Assembly (NCBI GenBank): GCA_965649765.1
Contig: OZ287750.1
Location: 46,314,001-46,378,000 of the forward strand
Origin: Bispira polyomma
Taxonomy: Eukaryota
DNA length: 64,000 nt
Reading direction: 5' to 3'
Under the pieces are notes generated by a model. That model was not told the origin of the DNA. It worked only from the letters and a program-made list of their open reading frames with translations, and made no database searches. The translations under genes and the position numbers were made by a program. Below are positions 6,344 to 54,282 of this stretch, piece by piece. Every line of letters begins with the position of its first letter. The stretch's first letter is position 1.

Positions 6344-8077
6344 TTACTGGGATGTATGACAGGTATTGTCATAAAACATATGGCAGTATGACTTTGGCCT
6401 TAGTATCAAATCTTTAAGTGCCTCCAGTTCCTTCCAAACAGCAGAGCCTTCACCATGTACAGGAGCAATGGGGTACCTTTGCCGTAAGATGCCCACACCT
6501 GGGATATTTGGCAGGAACACTCTGTGGCCGGATGCCACCATCTTTCTGGGTTTGCCCCTCTTGTCCAACACATAGGTGATGTCGCCATTCGGACTGGAGG
6601 TATCCGCTGGGTCGGGATTAACTTCAGAGCCAGAGAAAAGCCAACTGGGCGTCTGAAAGAACGTCTTGCTGTTGCTACCATTGTACGGTCTGTTGACTGC
6701 ACCATTCTGGCCATTTGCTGAAACTGTTTTACCCTCAGGAGATGCAGCACTACCTTTGTAAGTGATATCAAATGGGTTCCACTTGGACAAGGGGGTGAGG
6801 TATATTATCTCTAAAGGAAAAGCATATGTCCACCTTTGAGTGTTCTTCTCGCATTCTCCACTTGGTTTTGGACACTTTTCAAAGTCCATGCCAATAACCT
6901 TTTTTTGTGAGGTACTGGCCATAAAGACATTCTGATCGGAAAAGCCCCGTCTCTGAATTATGCGACCGCTTGCATCCCGGTTGCGTAGAAGATATTTTCT
7001 GTGATAAAATGCTGTGTTTAGAGGTGATTTAGTCACCGGATCTAAAGCTAATCCTGCTAAACCACCGTCTCTGAGATATCCACCGTAGTTATCTTTACCT
7101 GGAATTTCACGCATGAGATGTTCAAGAAGGTCTGTATTGTGCTTCCTGTCAAGGAACTTGTCAGAATCAACTGGATTTAGGGTAAAGCGAGCCGCCCGCG
7201 TTTGTGCATGGCCCTCCAGTGTCGATCCTGACACCATTCTGGATTTCAAATCATCCACCACACGCAAACGATTCAGTGGTAAATCTCTTTGCAGTGGATG
7301 ACACATTATTCTGTAGGTCCACTGAGCAAATTCGAGACCGTTAACACTGCTGATATTGATGAGTACCTTAGGGAGATAGGCCAAATTTTCGCCCGGATGC
7401 TTCCCACCAGAATATGACAAAAACCGGATGCGTTCTTCCAAATCTCTCCAGTATTTGGCATCAATAAAGTGTCGATCACTATCAAAGTCTTCTACCTCTT
7501 TTGGAGCTTTGATCCAGGCCCCTTCCAGGTAGCATAATACAGGTTTAAAGTATGGCCTATAATCCCGGACTGTGTAGTTCTGATTCTTCCATGCCTTAAA
7601 CCACTGCCTCATCTCTTTCACTTGAGCCTTAATGCTCTCCTGACTGACGACACTTGGTGGAACAGGTGGGAAGTCTATAAACTTAGATGCATGGTAATAA
7701 TGGCTGCTAGTTGATGGCATTTTAAGGAGATAGTCATTATGTCTCGTTCGAAACTCCACTCCATTTAGCACTGCGACAGTTTCTCCCATCCCAATGGTCC
7801 GGATGCTGTTGGCATGATCATGGATAGCAGCAAAACTATATCCAGTATGGCTCGGACTGTGGTAAGGACGACTTCCCTCACTTGTGTAACGTAGTTGCTT
7901 AATACCCGAATCTCCACTTGTGCGGGATTGTTCTTCTATGTAGAACTGCTGTGAGATCATCTGCCTGGCCAGGGTTAAGACGTCATCCTGAGTGATATTC
8001 AGAGGTGGAGAGCTAAGTACCAGTAGAGGAGGTAATGTGTGGAATGTCAGGAACAGGCAGCATAATGAAGTCAGACT
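6344..8077 (-). CDS. Uncharacterised, probably secreted protein (~580-590 aa), main coding exon
   Basis: The 538 aa ORF extends stop-free upstream of the listed Met to 8077 (SLTSLCCLFLTFHTLPPLLVLSSPPLNITQDDVLTLARQ), which looks like a signal peptide. It is preceded by a splice acceptor (tcttttacctatgacag). The composition is globular, with motif-like blocks IHDH, GMGE, VLNGVEFRTRHNDY, PVLCYLEGAW, SDRH and PLEIIYLTPLSKWNP. Confidence 0.85.
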   Translation of the reverse strand, partial: SLTSLCCLFLTFHTLPPLLVLSSPPLNITQDDVLTLARQMISQQFYIEEQSRTSGDSGIKQLRYTSEGSRPYHSPSHTGYSFAAIHDHANSIRTIGMGETVAVLNGVEFRTRHNDYLLKMPSTSSHYYHASKFIDFPPVPPSVVSQESIKAQVKEMRQWFKAWKNQNYTVRDYRPYFKPVLCYLEGAWIKAPKEVEDFDSDRHFIDAKYWRDLEERIRFLSYSGGKHPGENLAYLPKVLINISSVNGLEFAQWTYRIMCHPLQRDLPLNRLRVVDDLKSRMVSGSTLEGHAQTRAARFTLNPVDSDKFLDRKHNTDLLEHLMREIPGKDNYGGYLRDGGLAGLALDPVTKSPLNTAFYHRKYLLRNRDASGRIIQRRGFSDQNVFMASTSQKKVIGMDFEKCPKPSGECEKNTQRWTYAFPLEIIYLTPLSKWNPFDITYKGSAASPEGKTVSANGQNGAVNRPYNGSNSKTFFQTPSWLFSGSEVNPDPADTSSPNGDITYVLDKRGKPRKMVASGHRVFLPNIPGVGILRQRYPIAPVHGEGSAVWKELEALKDLILRPKSYCHMFYDNTCHTSQ

Positions 8078-8193
8078 CTGTCATAGGTAAAAGATACAGG
8101 AGTTTTAGTTTGTATCTTGATGCATGATACCACTGGCTCGTAGATTAAAATATCTCTCTTTACTTTGTAGCATTATTATCACTTGTTGCATAC

Positions 8194-13214: not shown

Positions 13215-13443
13215 TTGATTTGATTTGTTTTGCGGTTAAAAGTCACTTTTATCACCTTGTATAGGTAATATCATGACATGCAGATTCACTGCTGTATATT
13301 CAGGTGGTCAAGATTCTACACAGTAAACCAGTAACCATCGGCAAGTAACTGACAACTTTTCCCACTTAAAGCCCCGGCCGAGATTCAGACTAGAACCATA
13401 TAGGTGGGAGGCAAGTATGTTAGCACTGTGCCACCGAGGCCCC
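13215..13443 (-). mobile_element. tRNA-derived SINE (family A)
   Basis: Head GGGCCTCGGTGGCACAGTGCTAACATACTTGCCTCCCACC, central tgggaaaagttgtcagttacttgcc, tail aaaagtgacttttaaccgcaaaacaaatcaaatc. These blocks are shared with the copies at 15835, 19657, 44500 and 47630. Confidence 0.7.
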
Positions 13444-15834: not shown

Positions 15835-16930
15835 GGCCTGGGTGGCGCATGGGTAACAGTCTTGCAGCCCACCTCAGAAGTTGCAAGTTCGTGCCTTGGA
15901 CGTGGCTTGTATGTGGGAAAGTTAGCGGTAAACTCACTGAATGACACTGGTTAAAGGGCATTGCTAACCGGCTCCGGTGCGGTACGGTCCGATGCGACAG
16001 AAATTTTAGAAACAATGTAATATATATTGTCTATACATACCTGATCCGTTGCGGTCCGATCCGATCCGTACAGTTCGTAACGAAATTTCTAAAATACAGA
16101 TTTCTCTATTTTTTGTCGGACCGGATGAGGAGGGGGGAGGGGGGGGAGTGGAAATGTAGGGGAAACACACAGATCAAGAAGTGATATAGTTTATCAACCT
16201 ATTATAATCCATTAGTATAATATCCACTTGAGAATATTCAGGCCCATGACACAAAGTTAGCAATTAGTGTAAAATCCAATCAAGAATATTCAAGCCCTAA
16301 CAAATATGTCTTAAAAACAATTAGCAGTAAAACAGTGGCCTAAATCCAATTAACCAGGGACTTTCAATTTGATTTTTGTAGTTCCCCTAAGAGCATAATG
16401 ATATAAAGTGAAATTTGAATGACAGTAATAAATTATGTTGGAATAAATACTAACAAGGATTAATAAACTGAAATTGCCAACATATTTATTAGTTATATTA
16501 GATTGTTTTATTTAAATTTTGAATGTAGACACTTAACATTATGTGGATTGTTTGGATATATTGTGAACATGACAGATGGGGGTTTTGTTGTGCATAGTTA
16601 AATGGATGTAATTAATACTCAGTACTGGGATAAATTATTTCAGGTAAGTAAATTCATAAGTTATAATTTGAATTTATTTGATAATATATGTTAAGATATC
16701 ACATAATCAGACCCAGTACCGGATCCAGTGTAAAAGCATCATACGAAATCGTCGGATCGTATCGGACGTAAATATTCAGACCGTACCGCACCGGAGCTGG
16801 TTAGCAAGACCCTTAACAGTATGGAGAAGTTAAATAAACTACAAGTCTGTACGGGTTCCCTTCACCTGTAAACTATCCCTTGTAATACACGTGTTGAAAG
16901 TGAAGTTAAACCCTAACTAAATTAAAATCA
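15835..16930 (+). mobile_element. tRNA-derived SINE (family A) split by a MITE: 15835-15954 plus 16817-16930
   Basis: Head ggcctgggtggcgcatgggtaacagtcttgcagcccacc and centre tgtatgtgggaaagttagcggtaaact lie left of the MITE. The continuation and the tail gttgaaagtgaagttaaaccctaactaaattaaaatc lie to its right. Confidence 0.7.
15955..16813. mobile_element. Non-autonomous TIR element (MITE), PIF/Harbinger-like
   Basis: TIRs of about 37 bp (agggcattgctaaccggctccggtgcggtacggtccga / tcagaccgtaccgcaccggagctggttagcaagaccct), TAA on both sides (15952-54, 16814-16), subterminal ccgatccg-type repeats, no ORF. Confidence 0.85.
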
Positions 16931-17035
16931 CCCGTTTATGTGCCTATTGTTCCAAACAAGTTAATAAGATATTTTATGAATGAATCACGACATATTCAAA
17001 TATTAGGGACATTTACAGCCAATTCTCAGGAATAC

Positions 17036-19673
17036 TAGGGCCCTTGGAGATGTAGTAGGACCCTTAGAGGTGTAGTAGGGCCCTTAGAGATGTAGTAGGC
17101 CCTTAGAGATGTAGTAGGCCCTTGGAGATGTAGTAGGACCCTTAGAGATGTAGTAGGACCCTTAGAGATGTAGTAGGTCCCTTGGAGATGTAGTATGGCC
17201 CTTGGAGATGTAGTATGGCCCTTAGAGGTGTAGTAGGGCTCTTGGAGATGTAGTATGGCCCTTGGAGATGTAGTAGGACCCTTAGAGATGTAGTAGGCCC
17301 TTGGAGATGTAGTAGGACCCTTAGAGATGTAGTAGGTCCCTTGGAGATGTAGTATGGCCCTTGGAGATGTAGTATGGCCCTTAGAGGTGTAGTAGGGCCT
17401 TTGGAGATGTAGTATGGCCCTTGGAGATGTAGTAGGACCCTTAGAGATGTAGTAGAACCCTTGGAGATGTAGTAGGGCCCTTAGAGGTGTAGTAGGGCCC
17501 TTACAGGTGTAGTATGGCCCTTGGAGATGTAGTAGGACCCTTGAAGATGTAGTAGGGCCCTTAGAGGTGTAGTAGGAACCTTGGAGATGTAGTAGGGCTC
17601 TTAGAGGTTTAGTAGGGCCCTTGGAGATGTAGTATGGCCCTTGGAGATGTAGTAAGACCCTTGGAAATGTAGTAGGGCCCTTAGAGATGTAGTAGGGCCC
17701 TTGGTAATGTAGTAGGCCCTTGGTAATGTAGTAGGACCCTTAGAGATGTAGTAGGCCCTTGGAGATGTAGTAGGACCCTTAGAGATGTAGTAGGCCCTTG
17801 GAGATGTAGTAGGCCCTTGGTAATGTAGTAGGACCCTTAGAGATGTAGTAGGCCCTTGGAGATGTAGTAGGACCCTTAGAGATGTAGTAGGCCCTTGGAG
17901 ATGTAGTAGGCCCTTGGTAATGTAGTAGGACCCTTAGAGATGTAGTAGGCCCTTGGAGATGTAGTAGGACCCTTAGAGATGTAGTAGGACCCTTAGAGAT
18001 ATAGTAGGCCCTTGGAGATGTAGTAGGACCCTTAGAGATGTAGTAGGCCCTTGGAGATATAGTAGGCCCTTGGTAATGTAGTAGGCCCTTGGAGATGTAG
18101 TAGGGCCCTTGGTAATATAGTAGGCTCTTGGTAATGTAGTAGGCCCTTGGTAATGTAGTAGGGCCCTTAGAGATGTAGTAGGACCCTTAGAGATGTACTA
18201 GGACCCTTGGAGATGTAGTAGGCCTTTGGTAATGTAGTAGGCCCTTGGTAATGTAGTAGGCCCTTGGTAATGTAGTAGGCCCTTGGAGATGTAGTAGGAC
18301 CCTTAGAGATGTAGTAGGCCCTTGGAGATGTAGTAGGACCCTTAGAGATGTAGTAGGACCCTTAGAGATATAGTAGGCCCTTGGAGATGTAGTAGGCCCT
18401 TGGTAATGTAGTAGGCCCTTGGTAATGTAGTAGGCCCTTGGAGATGTAGTAGGACCCTTAGAGATGTAGTAGGCCCTTGGAGATGTAGTAGGACCCTTAG
18501 AGATGTAGTAGGCCCTTGGAGATGTAGTAGGCCCTTGGTAATGTAGTAGGCCCTTGGAGATGTAGTAGGGCCCTTGGTAATATAGTAGGCCCTTGGTAAT
18601 GTAGTAGGCCCTTGGTAATGTAATAGGGCCCTTAGAGATGTAGTAGGCCCTTGGAGATGTAGTAGGGCCCTTAGAGATGTAGTAGGACCCTTAGAGATGT
18701 AGTAGGACCCTTAGAGATGTAGTAGGCCCTTGGAGATGTAGTAGGACCCTTAGAGTTGTAGTATGGCCCTTGGAGATGTAGTAGGGCCCTTGGAGATGTA
18801 GTAGGGCCCTTGGATATAAAGTATGGCCCTTAGAGATGTAGTAGGACCCTTGGAGATGTAGTAGGGTCCTTGGTAATGTAGTAGGCCCTTGGAGATGTAG
18901 TAGGAGCCTTAGAGATGTAGTAGGACCCTTGGAGATGTAGTGGGACCCTTAGAGATGTAGTAGGACCCTTGGAGATGTAGTAGGACACTTGGGGACGTAG
19001 TAGGGCCCTTAGAGATGTAGTAGGAGCCTTAGAGATGTAGTAGGACCCTTAGAGATGTAGTAGGGCCCTTGGAGATGTAGTAGGACCCTTGGAGATGTAG
19101 TAAGACCCTTGGAGATGTAGTAGGGCCCTTAGAGATGTAGTAGGGCCCTTGGTAATGTAGTAGGACCCTTAGAGATGTAGTAGGCCCTTGGAGATGTAGT
19201 AGGACCCTTACAGATGTAGTAGGCCCTTGGAGATGTAGTAGGGCCCTTGGTAATATAGTAGGCCCTTGGTAATGTAGTAGGCCCTTGGTAATGTAGTAGG
19301 GCCCTTAGAGATGTAGTAGGCCCTTGGAGATGTAGTAGGACCCTTAGAGATGTACTAGGACCCTTGGAGATGTAGTAGGCCCTTGGAGATGTAGTAGGAC
19401 CCTTAGAGTTGTAGTATGGCCCTTGGAGATGTAGTAGGGCCCTTGGAGATGCAGTAGGCCCTTGGTAATGTAGTAGGACCCTTAGAGATATAGTAGGACC
19501 CTTAGAGATGTAGTAGGGCCCTTGGAGATGTAGTAGGACCCTTGGAGATGTAGTAGGACCCTTGGAGATGAAGTATGGCCCTTGAAGATGTAGCATGGCC
19601 CTTGGAGATGTAGTAGAGCCCTTGGATATGTAGTATGGCCCTTGGAGATGTAGTATGGCCCTTGGAGATGTAG
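17036..19673. repeat. Minisatellite, 19-20 bp unit (consensus ~TAGG(G/A)CCCTT(G/A)GAGATGTAG), about 2.6 kb, roughly 135 units
   Basis: Directly visible head-to-tail array with no spacers. Variant units include CCTTGGTAATGTAG, GTATGG and GAGGTGTAG. Copy number is estimated from length divided by unit size. Confidence 0.97.
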
Positions 19674-19875
19674 AGGTAACACTCTGGCCTTTCACCTGCT
19701 GTCATGGGTTTGTATCGTTGCCATGGCATGTATGTGGAAAAGTTGGCAGTAAACTTGGTGAATGCTAGTGGTTTGCAGTTCAGAAATCTTCACCAACTAC
19801 CCTGTATTGCATTTTTTTTACACTAGTAAACTCCAAGACTTGATGCAAGTTGTTGAAATTAAAGTTAAAACACAA
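19657..19875 (+). mobile_element. tRNA-derived SINE (family A) whose 5' end is the last minisatellite unit
   Basis: GGCCCTTGGAGATGTAGAGGTAACACTCTGGCCTTTCACC, then catgtatgtggaaaagttggcagtaaacttgg, then tail gttgaaattaaagttaaaacac. Collinear with the other family A copies. Confidence 0.75.
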
Positions 19876-20143
19876 TGGGCATAGTAAAATAAATGTTGTT
19901 TAAGAAAACATTATTACCCGGATCGAATAATGTTTGTGATGTGTATGTGAGCATTATGGCTCAAGAAACTCTAAGCTTAATTCTGCACAAAATTAAGCCT
20001 AAAGTTTACAGTGATTGTATTAACTAAGTTTCTAAAATTTGTATACAATGGCTTCCCATGGTCCAGTGGTTAAGGAGTTGACCAGGATAACTTGTTACAG
20101 TACCATGAGTAAACCATAAGCCTGTGTCATAATAAATTCCTTA

Positions 20144-20711
20144 TAGCCCAGTCACACCTACACGTGCTGGAGCTACGTTTGTGTGAGGTTTTCAATTTTG
20201 GAAACCTAGTACAGACGGTAGTAGAAAGTAATGCAAAAGTAAAGATCCCTGGTGCGTTTGTTCCCGGACGTTACTTAACGGATGATATCGTTCCGGAAAC
20301 GTCTTTGTTTGGTCTGCTACGACGATTATTTCAAACTGTTTGAAATAATCGTGACCGAGCTCTCTGTTTCTCAAGGACATCTCCACTCGTCTGTGTAAGT
20401 AGCAGTAAGTAGTGATTCATTTCCACTCATCTGTATTCGTTGTGGAACGTTTCACTAAGCATCATAACGCACCAGAATGAAGCCATAAGTAGCAGTACAG
20501 TAGCGCTACGTAGTAGTAGGTAGTGATATCCTACCAGTAAAGTCTTCATTTTTTCTCCTGCTCCGTGTGTATAAGTACTATAAGTATACTATAAGTACAT
20601 CATCACAAAAACGTCACAATCAACTGCACCTTTGTCAAAATGACGTCACTTTGGCACGAAACAACCCCGGTTTTAGATATATTGCTTTGCTACGTTGTGG
20701 GACGATAGCAC
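20144..20711 (-). mobile_element. MITE family B copy 1 (one terminus degraded), inverted relative to the copy at 45026
   Basis: Begins tta-tagcccagtcacacctacacgtgct. The ~570 bp body is the reverse complement of 45026-45596. Confidence 0.85.
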
Positions 20712-21122
20712 TTAGCCTAAATGGGTACAGACGCAACACCAAGCTAACCCTGTACAAATACTTTAATATAATTATTTATATGTACACTAATCCAATACCT
20801 TTCTATTTCCTTTACAGATGACGTCTACCCCCCCCCCCTCCCCCCCTTTCCCATTTATACTATATATTTTGTTTCTTTTCTTTGGGTCTGGCGGAAAAAT
20901 CATCCTTGCGCGAGATGTGTATACACTTCTGCCTAGTGGCTCAGATGACCACTTAAAATGGCGGTCCTCTGTCACTGGGTCCTATCCCCGGTGGTAGGCT
21001 AAAGAACATTGGGGACTTTGATAAATGGTCACCCCCGAGCCTCTCTCTTCAGTAAGGTAACTCACAGTAAATAATACCAAGTCCACCTGCAACTGATGTG
21101 ACATCCTCCGGTGACCTCCCCC

Positions 21123-21237
21123 TAGACCGAGTTTTCTGTCGCCGAAACGGCCGTTTTTTTCTGATGGTGTGGCCGTTGGCTAGACGAGCGATACATCAGT
21201 AAATAAAAGCATCGTCGAGGACAGAAAACTCGGTCTA
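21123..21237. mobile_element. Miniature (115 bp) inverted-repeat element
   Basis: Perfect 18 bp inverted repeat tagaccgagttttctgtc / gacagaaaactcggtcta with a CpG-rich interior. Confidence 0.6.
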
Positions 21238-21680
21238 ACCTCACCCATGACACAATTAATAAATCCACTCTCATATCTCTTTTAGATTCAAGACGAAAAC
21301 CAGCCAAAACCCAACTGTGTACACAGCTCTTACACACGGCACTCAAAACCCAAATTATACAAGTTCTGGCAAAAGACATCTTAACTAGACAACGTCAGGC
21401 CAAATCAAACCACCTGCGGCGGCATTAATATCTCTAATCTCTGTCACAGTCATTCGTTTCATTGCGAGCTATTGGACTGTCAACATCGTCAATCTTCTAC
21501 TGATATAATATGTAATTGAGATTATTTTGAAGAACTTGCTTCTTTGTTTTAGTTTTATTATAAATAATAATATTTAGTATATTATATTGACATTTATTTA
21601 ATATTCTTATGCCTCCCATGTGGTTGTGTCTGCCCTCACCCAAGGAGGTGTGTGTGTGTGTGTGGGGGGGGGGGGGGGCA

Positions 21681-27700: not shown

Positions 27701-27818
27701 GAAAGGGAAGTAAAAAGTTTTTTGTTACAAACAAGAGAGTTGTAGTGACAATCCACTAAAAGTTTTAGTTTGTATATACTTGGACATCTTGCTGATCCCG
27801 AGTTATGCGTTCTTTCAG

Positions 27819-27953
27819 CATGCCCAACAAACTGAAGATGCCCATCACAGACAAAGTAGAGGTGGGCCAGGCACTCAGGGAGTGTCTCATCCAGGCCAGA
27901 GACTCAGGAAGGCTAACTCTAGGCTTAGATGAAGCAGGCCAGTTACTGGAAGT
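27819..27953 (+). CDS. GADD45: GADD45-family protein (paralogue 1), coding exon 2
   Basis: Acceptor ttctttcag; MPNKLKMPITDKVEVGQALRECLIQARDSGRLTLGLDEAGQLLE(V); donor gtaagt. Matches the GADD45 VGxALxxxLxxAxxxxxLTxG motif. Confidence 0.92.
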
Positions 27954-27983
27954 GTAAGTACCATATTGTAATATATAGTAATC

Positions 27984-28122
27984 CAGTGCAAAACTCTATT
28001 ATCCAAATAGATTTGATGAACTTATTTTCATTCTCCCAAATTTGAGATTATTCTCTTTGTTTTATACCATTATTTCTATTATCCAAACCAAAAAATTTGT
28101 TTAGATAATAGAGTTTCTACTG
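27984..28122. mobile_element. MITE family C (Tc1/mariner-like), degenerate copy
   Basis: cagtgcaaaactctattatc / gataatagagtttctactg; same family as 38092-38261. Confidence 0.6.
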
Positions 28123-29284
28123 CAATAAAAAAAAGATACAAGTTTGTATTGATGACCTAATGTCATTGTTGATGTTTATTTGTAATTAAAGTATTCTACT
28201 TCTAAGGTACTATGTAGTCTTCAGCATGTAATTGCATCTACTTGGGGAAACCCACATGATGATTTTGTACTCCACACTCGCCCTGTGACTTGGGGCATAT
28301 GTGCGTAGCAAAATGTGGCAAAATGTTGCTATGATGCAGATAATAGTGCAGTAATTGTTGTGCTAATTAACAAACAAAACACAAAAAAATCTAGGGAAAC
28401 CTAGCTGTTTAACCTACGTCATAGGTTTGGGGATGAAGCCATGGCTAAGTGGGAAACAGTGTTGTACAAATGACAAATACATGTGTAATAGGATTGAACA
28501 TAGATGATGCTTGCATCATACTTTATAACATCTGTTGCAGAGTACTGAATTGTTTGCAAGGTAGCCATAATATTTGTTAGAGCAATCACATTTGTGCAAA
28601 GGTGTTTAATACCATCTGATGTTGATTGTGGGGGGATATTGGCGGGGGGGGGGGGGGGGGCGATGGGGGGATATCTTGGCTTGTCACTCTGTGTGTTACA
28701 GAACAAAGCTCGTCACATTGACGTCAAGAACAGTTGTTTGCCATGTGGGTGCAAAGATTTACTTAGCGGAGGTGTGTGTGTGTAGGACATAACAAATCTC
28801 CACTAGTGTTTGTGGCCCAATTGTTCAGAAGTTGATTTAATTCTCAGAATTCTGTTAGCTTATAGGCAACCATTTCTTTGAATAGCTATTAAAACTTTTT
28901 TACCATGGTAGTTCTAGACATTACAAAACCAGCGTAGAAATAATTAAAACTGGGGCATTCAAAATCACATATTAGGGAATTTTAACACGGTACAGCAGAA
29001 ACTCTATTATTCAAATACAATGGGACAGAGAAAATATGTTCAGATAATAGAAACAGGGTTAAAAAATTATTATTTTTATTTGTATAAAACAATAGGGAAA
29101 TATAAATTTGGCAGGCTGAAATTGAGTTTTTAAAATTAACTGTTTGAATAATAGAATGTCTGCTGTATTTATTTACCAAGTTTTATCCCTTGTTTGGCAC
29201 TTTGGCAACTTAGTGGTGATATGCGCTCTACTGAGTACCTTTCTAGTTTTCTCTATAGTATCTGTTTCTTCTGTCTATTGACAG

Positions 29285-29405
29285 ATGCCCTGATGAGGTG
29301 ATGCTCTGCCTACTGCCTTGTGTGGAGCCCAGTGATGTCACACTACAGATACATGTCACTCTAATCCAGGCCTTCTGCTGGGAGAATGACATTAGAATCC
29401 TCAAG
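29285..29405 (+). CDS. GADD45: GADD45-family protein (paralogue 1), coding exon 3
   Basis: CPDEVMLCLLPCVEPSDVTLQIHVTLIQAFCWENDIRILK contains the GADD45 signature LQIHxTLIQAFCxENDI. Acceptor gacag, donor AAG|gtcagt. Confidence 0.95.
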
Positions 29406-53504: not shown

Positions 53505-53979
53505 TAATGTCATTCGACTGTTCCCTTTTGTGCGAAAAATTGTGCGCATTTATTAAGAGAAAGAAACACATGATGAAGCCAATCAAACGGAGAGGTTCCC
53601 GAACATACGTGAAGGAGGGGGAGAAGGAGGCGCCAATAATCCCTTGGCAGCATGAGTTCATTTAAAAGTCGTCTACTTTACCTTTATTAAATCCTAAAAT
53701 TGCATTTCAACCAGTGCTCCAGTGTTTTGCATATTCTAATTTATTTGATTCTGCAGTGCTTGTAAATCAAATGAGGTTGCCTGGTAAACTTGGGCCTACA
53801 ACAAGGCTACGACATACTGATAATAAGCCCAATATTACAAGTAGCTCTCTGGAATGAGCCACACACCTTTATTATTATTATTATTATTATTAAATTAGTA
53901 TATGACTAGATTCATATACATCATGTCAGTCACTTATTGTTTAAAAAGGGATTATAGTTCTAAATACAAGAAAAATCAT

Positions 53980-54282
53980 CTCCGTGGCCTAGTGGCTAGA
54001 GTGTTTGACTTTGGATCTGAGGGTCCAGGTTCTATCCTGGCCTGGATGTTGTAACACACAGTTGTCCCTCTCTACCCAGGTTTATGAATAGGTACCTGGC
54101 CGGCAATGGGTGTAAGTGTATGCCCCATATGTGGCAGCATGGCTAGACTAGTATGCTTTCTGAGGGAACTGAGACTGAACATTTTGTGGATGATCCGAGG
54201 CTGGGGTGTAAATTGAAAAGTAGGATGAGACCTCAATAGGGGTAATATCAGATTATAAACCTACACACATTTACATTTACAT
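53980..54282 (+). mobile_element. tRNA-derived SINE with a CORE-like centre
   Basis: A box gtggcctagtggctaga, B box ggttctatcc, centre cctctctacccaggtttatgaataggtacc, tail (catttac)n. Confidence 0.7.

Follow-up and report, generated by a model that had tools for sequence, protein, structure and literature searches.

Minisatellites derived from short interspersed elements (SINEs) are a known kind of repeat. In squamates, the available text of Vassetzky et al. (2023; PMC10702118) describes sSat1-3 as tandem arrays in which a portion of a tRNA-type SINE is repeated and the terminal unit is longer, reaching the SINE end; many low-copy seeds exist of which few expand, and locus-specific unit variants alternate. 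Their units of approximately 70-290 nt comprise box B or the SINE body, the major ones are multi-locus, and they lean towards subtelomeric regions. Alu minisatellites (Ahmed and Liang 2012; PMC3389668) are, in the accessible parts of that study, mostly single-locus, consist of part of the SINE and have grown in place, the 2,663 Alu-derived repeats having more units in older families. Minisatellites from mouse B1 and human Alu (Bois et al. 1998; Jurka and Gentles 2006) are cited in excerpts of PMC9659126 and PMC6947457, and a limpet satellite is described as derived from a Nin-SINE in the excerpted text of PMC11121367. Tandem tRNA-like promoter sequence likewise makes up Hy/Pol III, Xenopus satellite 1/OAX and PolIII/TAN of amphibians, tRNA-related repeats of 200-360 nt that are present in high copy, some of them transcribed in vitro, and for which a SINE origin is doubted (available portions of PMC9659126 and PMC10702118).

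We describe here an array of 134 units adjoining a SINE in the genome of Bispira polyomma, located in a 64-kb stretch (64,000 nt) that is referred to as the window. Our main reading, to which we assign a probability of roughly 80%, is that the array is a single-locus minisatellite derived from the 17-19 bases at the 5' end of the SINE next to it; it would have arisen by local duplication after SINE insertion and lengthened through slippage and unequal exchange, and it is probably neutral. This reading is carried by the identity and shared register of unit and SINE head, the single locus, the block structure of the array, the loss of promoter consensus, and the recurrence of such arrays at at least 11 other SINE copies. 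With the parent sequence still attached, the locus documents the birth of a minisatellite unusually clearly. Its distinctive traits are the very short unit, the origin from the start-site/A-box segment, the number of units, and the repeated independent origin of such arrays. Jurka and Gentles (2006) reportedly studied minisatellites built from approximately the first 44 nt of Alu, which would be the nearest precedent for head-derived arrays; such arrays are therefore probably not new. A literature search, mostly without subscription papers, turned up no description of invertebrate tRNA SINEs giving rise to minisatellites through their A-box segment.

As in the sSats, the terminal unit runs into the SINE to its end (model positions 3-221), but the unit measures 20 nt and occurs at a single locus. 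The B. polyomma arrays as a group have units of 11-41 nt, represent one event per array, derive from start site plus A box, and show no significant subtelomeric lean (6 of 15 array loci in the outer 10%; P 0.06). Alu minisatellites differ in that Alu is 7SL-derived, in their mean unit numbers of 2.3-2.4, and in that no 5' hotspot is reported in the accessible parts of PMC3389668. By the definitions of Ahmed and Liang for minisatellites derived from transposable elements (TEs), the array has at least two tandem copies of minisatellite size (20 nt x134), and its unit is at least 70% like the TE consensus (13/18, 72%) with a profile match from 19658; at 87% unit identity it falls below their 95% filter, as expected for a long, old array. 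Inspection revealed no Haber-Louis direct repeats of 5-10 nt flanking the array at 20-nt spacing, just microhomologies of 2-3 nt, so that a seed of this type is not demonstrated. In this respect the array resembles the 94% of human TE-derived repeats without a flanking repeat; the origin of 6% of TE-derived cases could be explained, according to the available text of PMC3389668. Compared with the amphibian repeats, the unit contains part of the A box only and the parent SINE is attached.

The array and its parent SINE

In the 64-kb window, TRF placed the array at positions 17036-19673 (forward strand), with a period of 20, 134.0 copies and 87% matches. When the array was split into single units, these proved to be 19- or 20-nt variants comprising SINE positions ~1-18 plus flank; the middle of the array was enriched in 19-nt units and in one two-base variant. 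The earlier note had divided the unit into 3 nt of flank and 17 nt of SINE; the SINE-head nature of the unit holds, whereas the exact split does not, since on inspection 1-3 nt of flank fit equally well. Exact repeats inside the array reach 185 nt (offset 97 nt), followed by 126 nt (offset 155 nt) and 108 nt (offset 369 nt), which points to block duplication, and the identity of 0.76-0.91 between neighbouring units points to gradual growth; the pattern thus shows growth by unit and block duplication with concurrent mutation. Open reading frames over the array were rejected as coding, being merely repeat read-through.

The last unit (19656-19673) continues gap-free into the body of an old full-length tRNA-type SINE of family f2 (19656-19875, forward strand; identified by nhmmer, 29 genomic relatives aligned), the first 18 nt of which are this unit, so that the seamless join reported earlier was reproduced. 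For a profile of f2, 29 other loci were retrieved and 23 of them used, four near-duplicates and two headless copies being left out. This profile matched 19658-19869 at model positions 3-221 (E 2.7e-52), a result that is partly circular because the copies were chosen by likeness to the SINE at 19656. The profile of the related family f1, built without reference to the array locus, matched 19658-19875 from model position 4 (E 1.6e-17). Against the f2 majority, the last unit agreed in register at 13/18 (binomial P 8e-5), whereas the 25 nt preceding it agreed with the f2 flank columns at 5/25; the SINE body at the array end agreed at 49/57, 65/70 and 45/67. The proposal that the unit stems from the A-box segment at the SINE 5' end is thereby upheld.

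Two further SINE copies lie in the window. The comparison copy of the earlier note, called 13442 there, is a separate full-length element of family f1 (13230-13443, reverse strand). The ungapped 40-nt alignment to it could be confirmed (26/40 identical, hand count), but it does not represent the closest family, the copy at the array being nearer f2 than f1. A second copy (15835-16917, forward strand) is split into the pieces 15835-15953 and 16831-16917 by an 861-bp element at 15954-16814. This element has 39-nt terminal inverted repeats that are 90% complementary, its end is high-copy in contigs, and by these features it is likely a non-autonomous DNA transposon.

Relatives of the SINE behind the array are dispersed: a first look yielded 1811 candidates, the best of which are 76-85% identical. 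With first-look counts of 2431 and 1811, these elements are dispersed, high-copy, short and non-coding, as is characteristic of tRNA-derived SINEs. Four related families were found: f1, f2, the young f3 and the older f4. The youngest and commonest is f3, whose copies are 91-98% identical to the consensus and which accounted for 22 of 42 random copies. Together, the first profiles detected 40 SINE fragments in 400 kb of evenly spaced genome samples, which extrapolates to ~100,000 fragments genome-wide. With tRNA spacing in both cases, the f2 consensus has an A box without mismatch at 11 and a B box with one mismatch at 54, and the f1 consensus has one mismatch in each box. Among 44 sequences of 8 tRNA types, tRNA-Thr(CGT) matched the heads best, with a score of 63 for f1 (shuffle maximum 51) and of 56 for f2 (shuffle mean 39.7, maximum 61); judged by these scores, likeness to genomic tRNAs appears clear for f1, while f2 does not exceed the shuffle maximum. 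ARAGORN did not call the SINE heads as tRNA, nor did Rfam on 8 loci, and both programs run on the window returned nothing at the array/SINE site. By description, the four families resemble MetaSINE and related superfamilies (tRNA head, conserved central domain; excerpts of PMC4824008) in their common central segment, their length of ~220-240 nt, and a head nearest tRNA-Thr among the tRNAs tested. Elsewhere in the window, 53978-54048 (forward strand) gave a weak Rfam tRNA match (29.8 bits) that ARAGORN did not call, perhaps a tRNA pseudogene or another SINE head, and tandem tRNA-gene clusters were seen on contigs C3 and C11 (L218-L224, L233-L239, L240-L246).

The array is confined to one place in the genome. 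An exact search of the 1.035 Gb genome with the 17-letter unit core gave 80 matches, all 80 inside 17036-19673 and none outside it, and the reversed-control core gave 0 matches. The birth of a satellite from a SINE promoter, as first proposed, is therefore kept with respect to the SINE-head origin only, the product being a minisatellite at a single locus and not a satellite family. The findings that the earlier note had named as contrary to its reading, namely identical arrays without a SINE or a unit that does not match the head, were sought and not encountered: the core is single-locus and the head is in register.

An independent minisatellite that was abutted by chance by a 5'-truncated SINE, or an assembly artefact, could also place a SINE body behind an array; 5/18 positions of the unit deviate from the family head, and the array length is without long-read confirmation. 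The in-register match of the last unit and the independent f1 profile that spans it argue against this explanation, as do the same architecture at at least 11 other events and the heterogeneity of the units. Moreover, short-read contigs (X1 and X2) carry the left junction, and the 272 nt they cover there show 0 differences; these contigs come from two runs of one sample, may represent the source DNA itself, and do not confirm the length of the array. Altogether, we consider chance abutment or artefact barely credible. In contigs of sample S2 (run X3), 16830-16879, 16930-17060 and 19872-20048 were not covered while exact pieces further right were present, holes that prove nothing by themselves. 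Among the contig loose ends and joints listed, neither an unexpanded nor a second allele was seen.

Promoter state and the GADD45 gene

The A box of the SINE copy (19666-19676, forward strand) carries 2 mismatches. Its B box (19707-19717, forward strand) carries 3 mismatches in an 11-letter scan, two of which hit invariant positions, one being the C in the TC pair. Under four consensus forms, no perfect A box was found in the array, which agrees with the earlier suspicion that the A box is decayed and maybe inert. The arrangement of many degenerate A boxes upstream of one B-box region was likewise recovered, except that the B box is itself broken. In Alu, A and B boxes jointly form the TFIIIC site, and replacement of the TC pair in the B box strongly lowers transcription (available text of PMC4333407). 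An intact A box together with an intact B box, as in an active type 2 Pol III promoter or TFIIIC site, was not found at the locus. The absence of a perfect A box and the single broken B box thus make recruitment unlikely, and judged by the state of these boxes, Pol III or TFIIIC activity at the array locus would be unlikely.

A GADD45-family gene lies further along the forward strand, with its first two coding exons within 27805-29405. Exon 1 (27805-27953) and the splice phase were read by eye, while exon 2 (29285-29405) was identified by search and matches GADD45 alpha and gamma in PDB (E 9e-10). The array had been placed next to this gene, but the likely ATG at 27805 is 8.1 kb downstream of the array, with high-copy repeats between them; an extra upstream non-coding exon may exist. 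Several very high-copy repeats occupy 20108-21287, directly behind the SINE. On the other side of the array, a 578-aa open frame (6344-8080, reverse strand) has no start codon at its 5' end and gave neither a Pfam match nor a useful ESM Atlas match; the array could lie within an intron of the gene to which this frame belongs.

The array might nevertheless have been co-opted as a TFIIIC or insulator site, as a source of small RNAs, or as a length-variable regulator of GADD45. Unit junctions create 29 sites with at most one mismatch from a 12-letter A-box form, and TFIIIC bound to Alu elements can control genes (excerpts of PMC7014570). The lack of perfect A boxes, the broken B box, the distance to GADD45 among high-copy repeats, and the occurrence of similar arrays at unrelated genome places make such a role highly improbable; the suggestion of a TFIIIC/insulator site or small-RNA source is accordingly not supported, and no evidence for a role of the array at GADD45 was found. 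Decay and recurrence argue instead that the array is likely neutral and without function.

Recurrence at other SINE copies

The genome was scanned for sites where a SINE-head motif occurs twice in direct succession, using three variants of a head pattern and one head pattern of a second family; the window array itself matches none of these patterns. The first pattern found one locus, a two-copy seed with a full SINE body (L091). The second gave 191 matches versus 41 in the reversed control; 100 of the 191 were listed, and among the matches listed were an array of 41 nt x15 followed by a SINE tail (L125) and two copies with a weak head (L129). The third pattern gave 74 matches at 16 loci versus 14 reversed-control matches. 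Six of these loci, representing five events, are SINE-adjoining arrays of at least five units: L123 (23 nt x19), L143 (16 nt x46), L145 (15 nt x6), the paralogous pair L146 and L147 (23 nt x23), and L149 (11 nt x23). The remaining loci comprise the two-copy seed L091, two head-like arrays without SINE body that represent one event, and seven loci unlinked to SINEs. At L123, L143 and L125, the SINE behind the array is partly missing.

With the head pattern of the second family, 12 matches at 7 loci were obtained (control 0), and five of the seven are long arrays entering f4 bodies (L205, L206, L210, L214, L215). The other two, L213 and L216, were rejected as duplications, being f3 insertions with target-site repeats. 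At L213:1500-1776 and L216:1502-1745, separate young f3 SINEs lie at the same position inside the f4 A-box segment with the same 14-nt target-site repeat; as the head pattern favours insertions near this segment, an insertion preference is not demonstrated by them. Together, besides the window array, at least 11 further independent SINE-attached arrays of at least five units were found. Unit lengths range from 11 to 41 nt and phases vary, which indicates that the events were independent.

The two body-less arrays, L122 and L142, have flanks 97-98% identical, yet 37 versus 120 units, which suggests that arrays of this class change length quickly; by analogy, the window array is a plausible VNTR. 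Their units of 22-25 nt contain G runs (G4 score 1.4 for L142), and a SINE fragment (positions 83-199) lies ~300 nt behind. Pattern hits without SINE remains were dropped (L124, L127, L128, L133, L134, L139, L140, L144, L148, L150, L151, L092, L095, L126 and others). One of them, L148:511-6496, is a 6-kb array of 21-nt x285 for which no SINE link was found. Three SINE copies have shared flanks on several chromosomes (first, L002, L007, L012-L014, L016, L017, L022 and L024; second, L064, L065, L067, L070 and L071; third, L198, L199, L201, L203 and L204), indicating that they were carried inside larger mobile or duplicated units.

Possible head bias and proposed mechanism

As mid-body controls, two patterns from one segment (~positions 76-96) were used, which gave 13 loci. 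Six two-copy events within SINEs were found (L193, L194, L195, L196, L200 and a sixth event shared by five copies) and no SINE-attached long array. L202 is a 41-unit array that resembles the SINE mid-body with no body attached, and the hits L192 and L197 were unrelated and without SINE remains. The ratio of attached long arrays to two-copy seeds was thus 11:2 for the head, including matches listed for the second pattern, and 0:6 for the mid-body (Fisher P 0.001); counting unattached arrays too, it was 12:2 and 1:6 (P 0.003). Because the mid-body controls do not fit f4, the fair test is that for f1 and f2 only, with 6:2 and 0:3 (Fisher P 0.06). A head bias of long arrays is therefore suggestive only. 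The wider proposition, that long minisatellites are repeatedly born in the start-site/A-box segment of tRNA-type SINEs, with at least 12 independent expansions in several families of one genome and none attached from the tested mid-body segment, is in our judgement an even bet.

Slightly less probable than even is that arrays originate evenly along SINEs and that the choice of patterns explains the apparent preference, an account that disputes the bias only and leaves the SINE-head origin of the window array untouched. With ~100,000 SINE fragments and 146 minisatellite arrays in 400 kb of random genome sample (33 kb, 8% of bases), many SINE-derived arrays are expected, and the reversed controls (41 versus 191 and 14 versus 74) reveal that G/T-rich patterns match unrelated arrays. 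L202 also fits an even origin, and in the available text of Ahmed and Liang (PMC3389668) AluJ and AluY are without hotspot while AluS has hotspots at 59-137 and 176-206. Against pattern choice stand the ratios given above among the matches listed, and the observation that copies with the mid-body motifs are at least as frequent as those with the head motifs (2 and 18 versus 2 and 13 of 59 incidental SINE copies, small counts).

If the bias is true, its cause might be the promoter. Replication forks pause at tRNA genes, and TFIIIC, TFIIIB and Pol III at the start site and A box could stall forks or expose single strands while the promoter works. In line with this idea, 12 of 12 attached long arrays, including the window array and counted among the matches listed, derive from the start-site/A-box segment, and several sibling arrays, among them L146, have a near-perfect A box per unit. 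However, the youngest family f3, with the best-kept promoters, had no long head array in the pattern searches and three two-copy seeds in the mid-body, and two-copy seeds in general were not biased towards the head (2 head versus 6 mid-body). Promoter-breaking changes are, moreover, common to the units of the window array, which implies that most of its growth came after decay. Promoter-coupled instability is thus improbable.

We favour growth in place, which would proceed as follows. After insertion of a SINE, a local DNA duplication at its head would create a two-copy seed. Such seeds may arise alike at head and mid-body, and some would lengthen gradually through slippage and unequal exchange; the head unit, which is G-rich and strand-skewed, would probably expand more readily than the mid-body unit. 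Slow expansion would leave long arrays in old families and none in the youngest; the presence of seeds in f3 and the absence of long head arrays from this family in the pattern searches fit slow growth, and speak against an origin during retrotransposition or through an active promoter. With respect to base composition, the G4Hunter-type score peaks in the first 22 nt of f2 and f3 and is joint highest there in f1, and the head is the most G-rich and skewed 22 nt of f2 and f3, with a tie in f1. G skew was positive in 13 of 13 head arrays scored (0.29-0.98), partly by construction of the patterns. The greater readiness of G-rich units to expand is called into question by the window array, whose G4Hunter-type score is low (0.11) so that G4 as its driver is not supported, by the skew of 0.45 in the mid-body-like L202, and by the random sample, in which neither G+C content nor skew was higher in the 13 arrays of at least five copies than in the 77 short ones (P 0.14).

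The B. polyomma genome thus presents a series from one SINE segment that comprises two-copy seeds, short arrays and arrays of more than 100 units. The head bias, if true genome-wide, would make the expansion step testable in this genome. Should the head indeed be a recurrent birthplace, the ~10^5 near-replicate substrates of different ages would constitute a natural experiment on the causes of expansion, in which G-rich strand structure could be contrasted with occupancy by Pol III factors.
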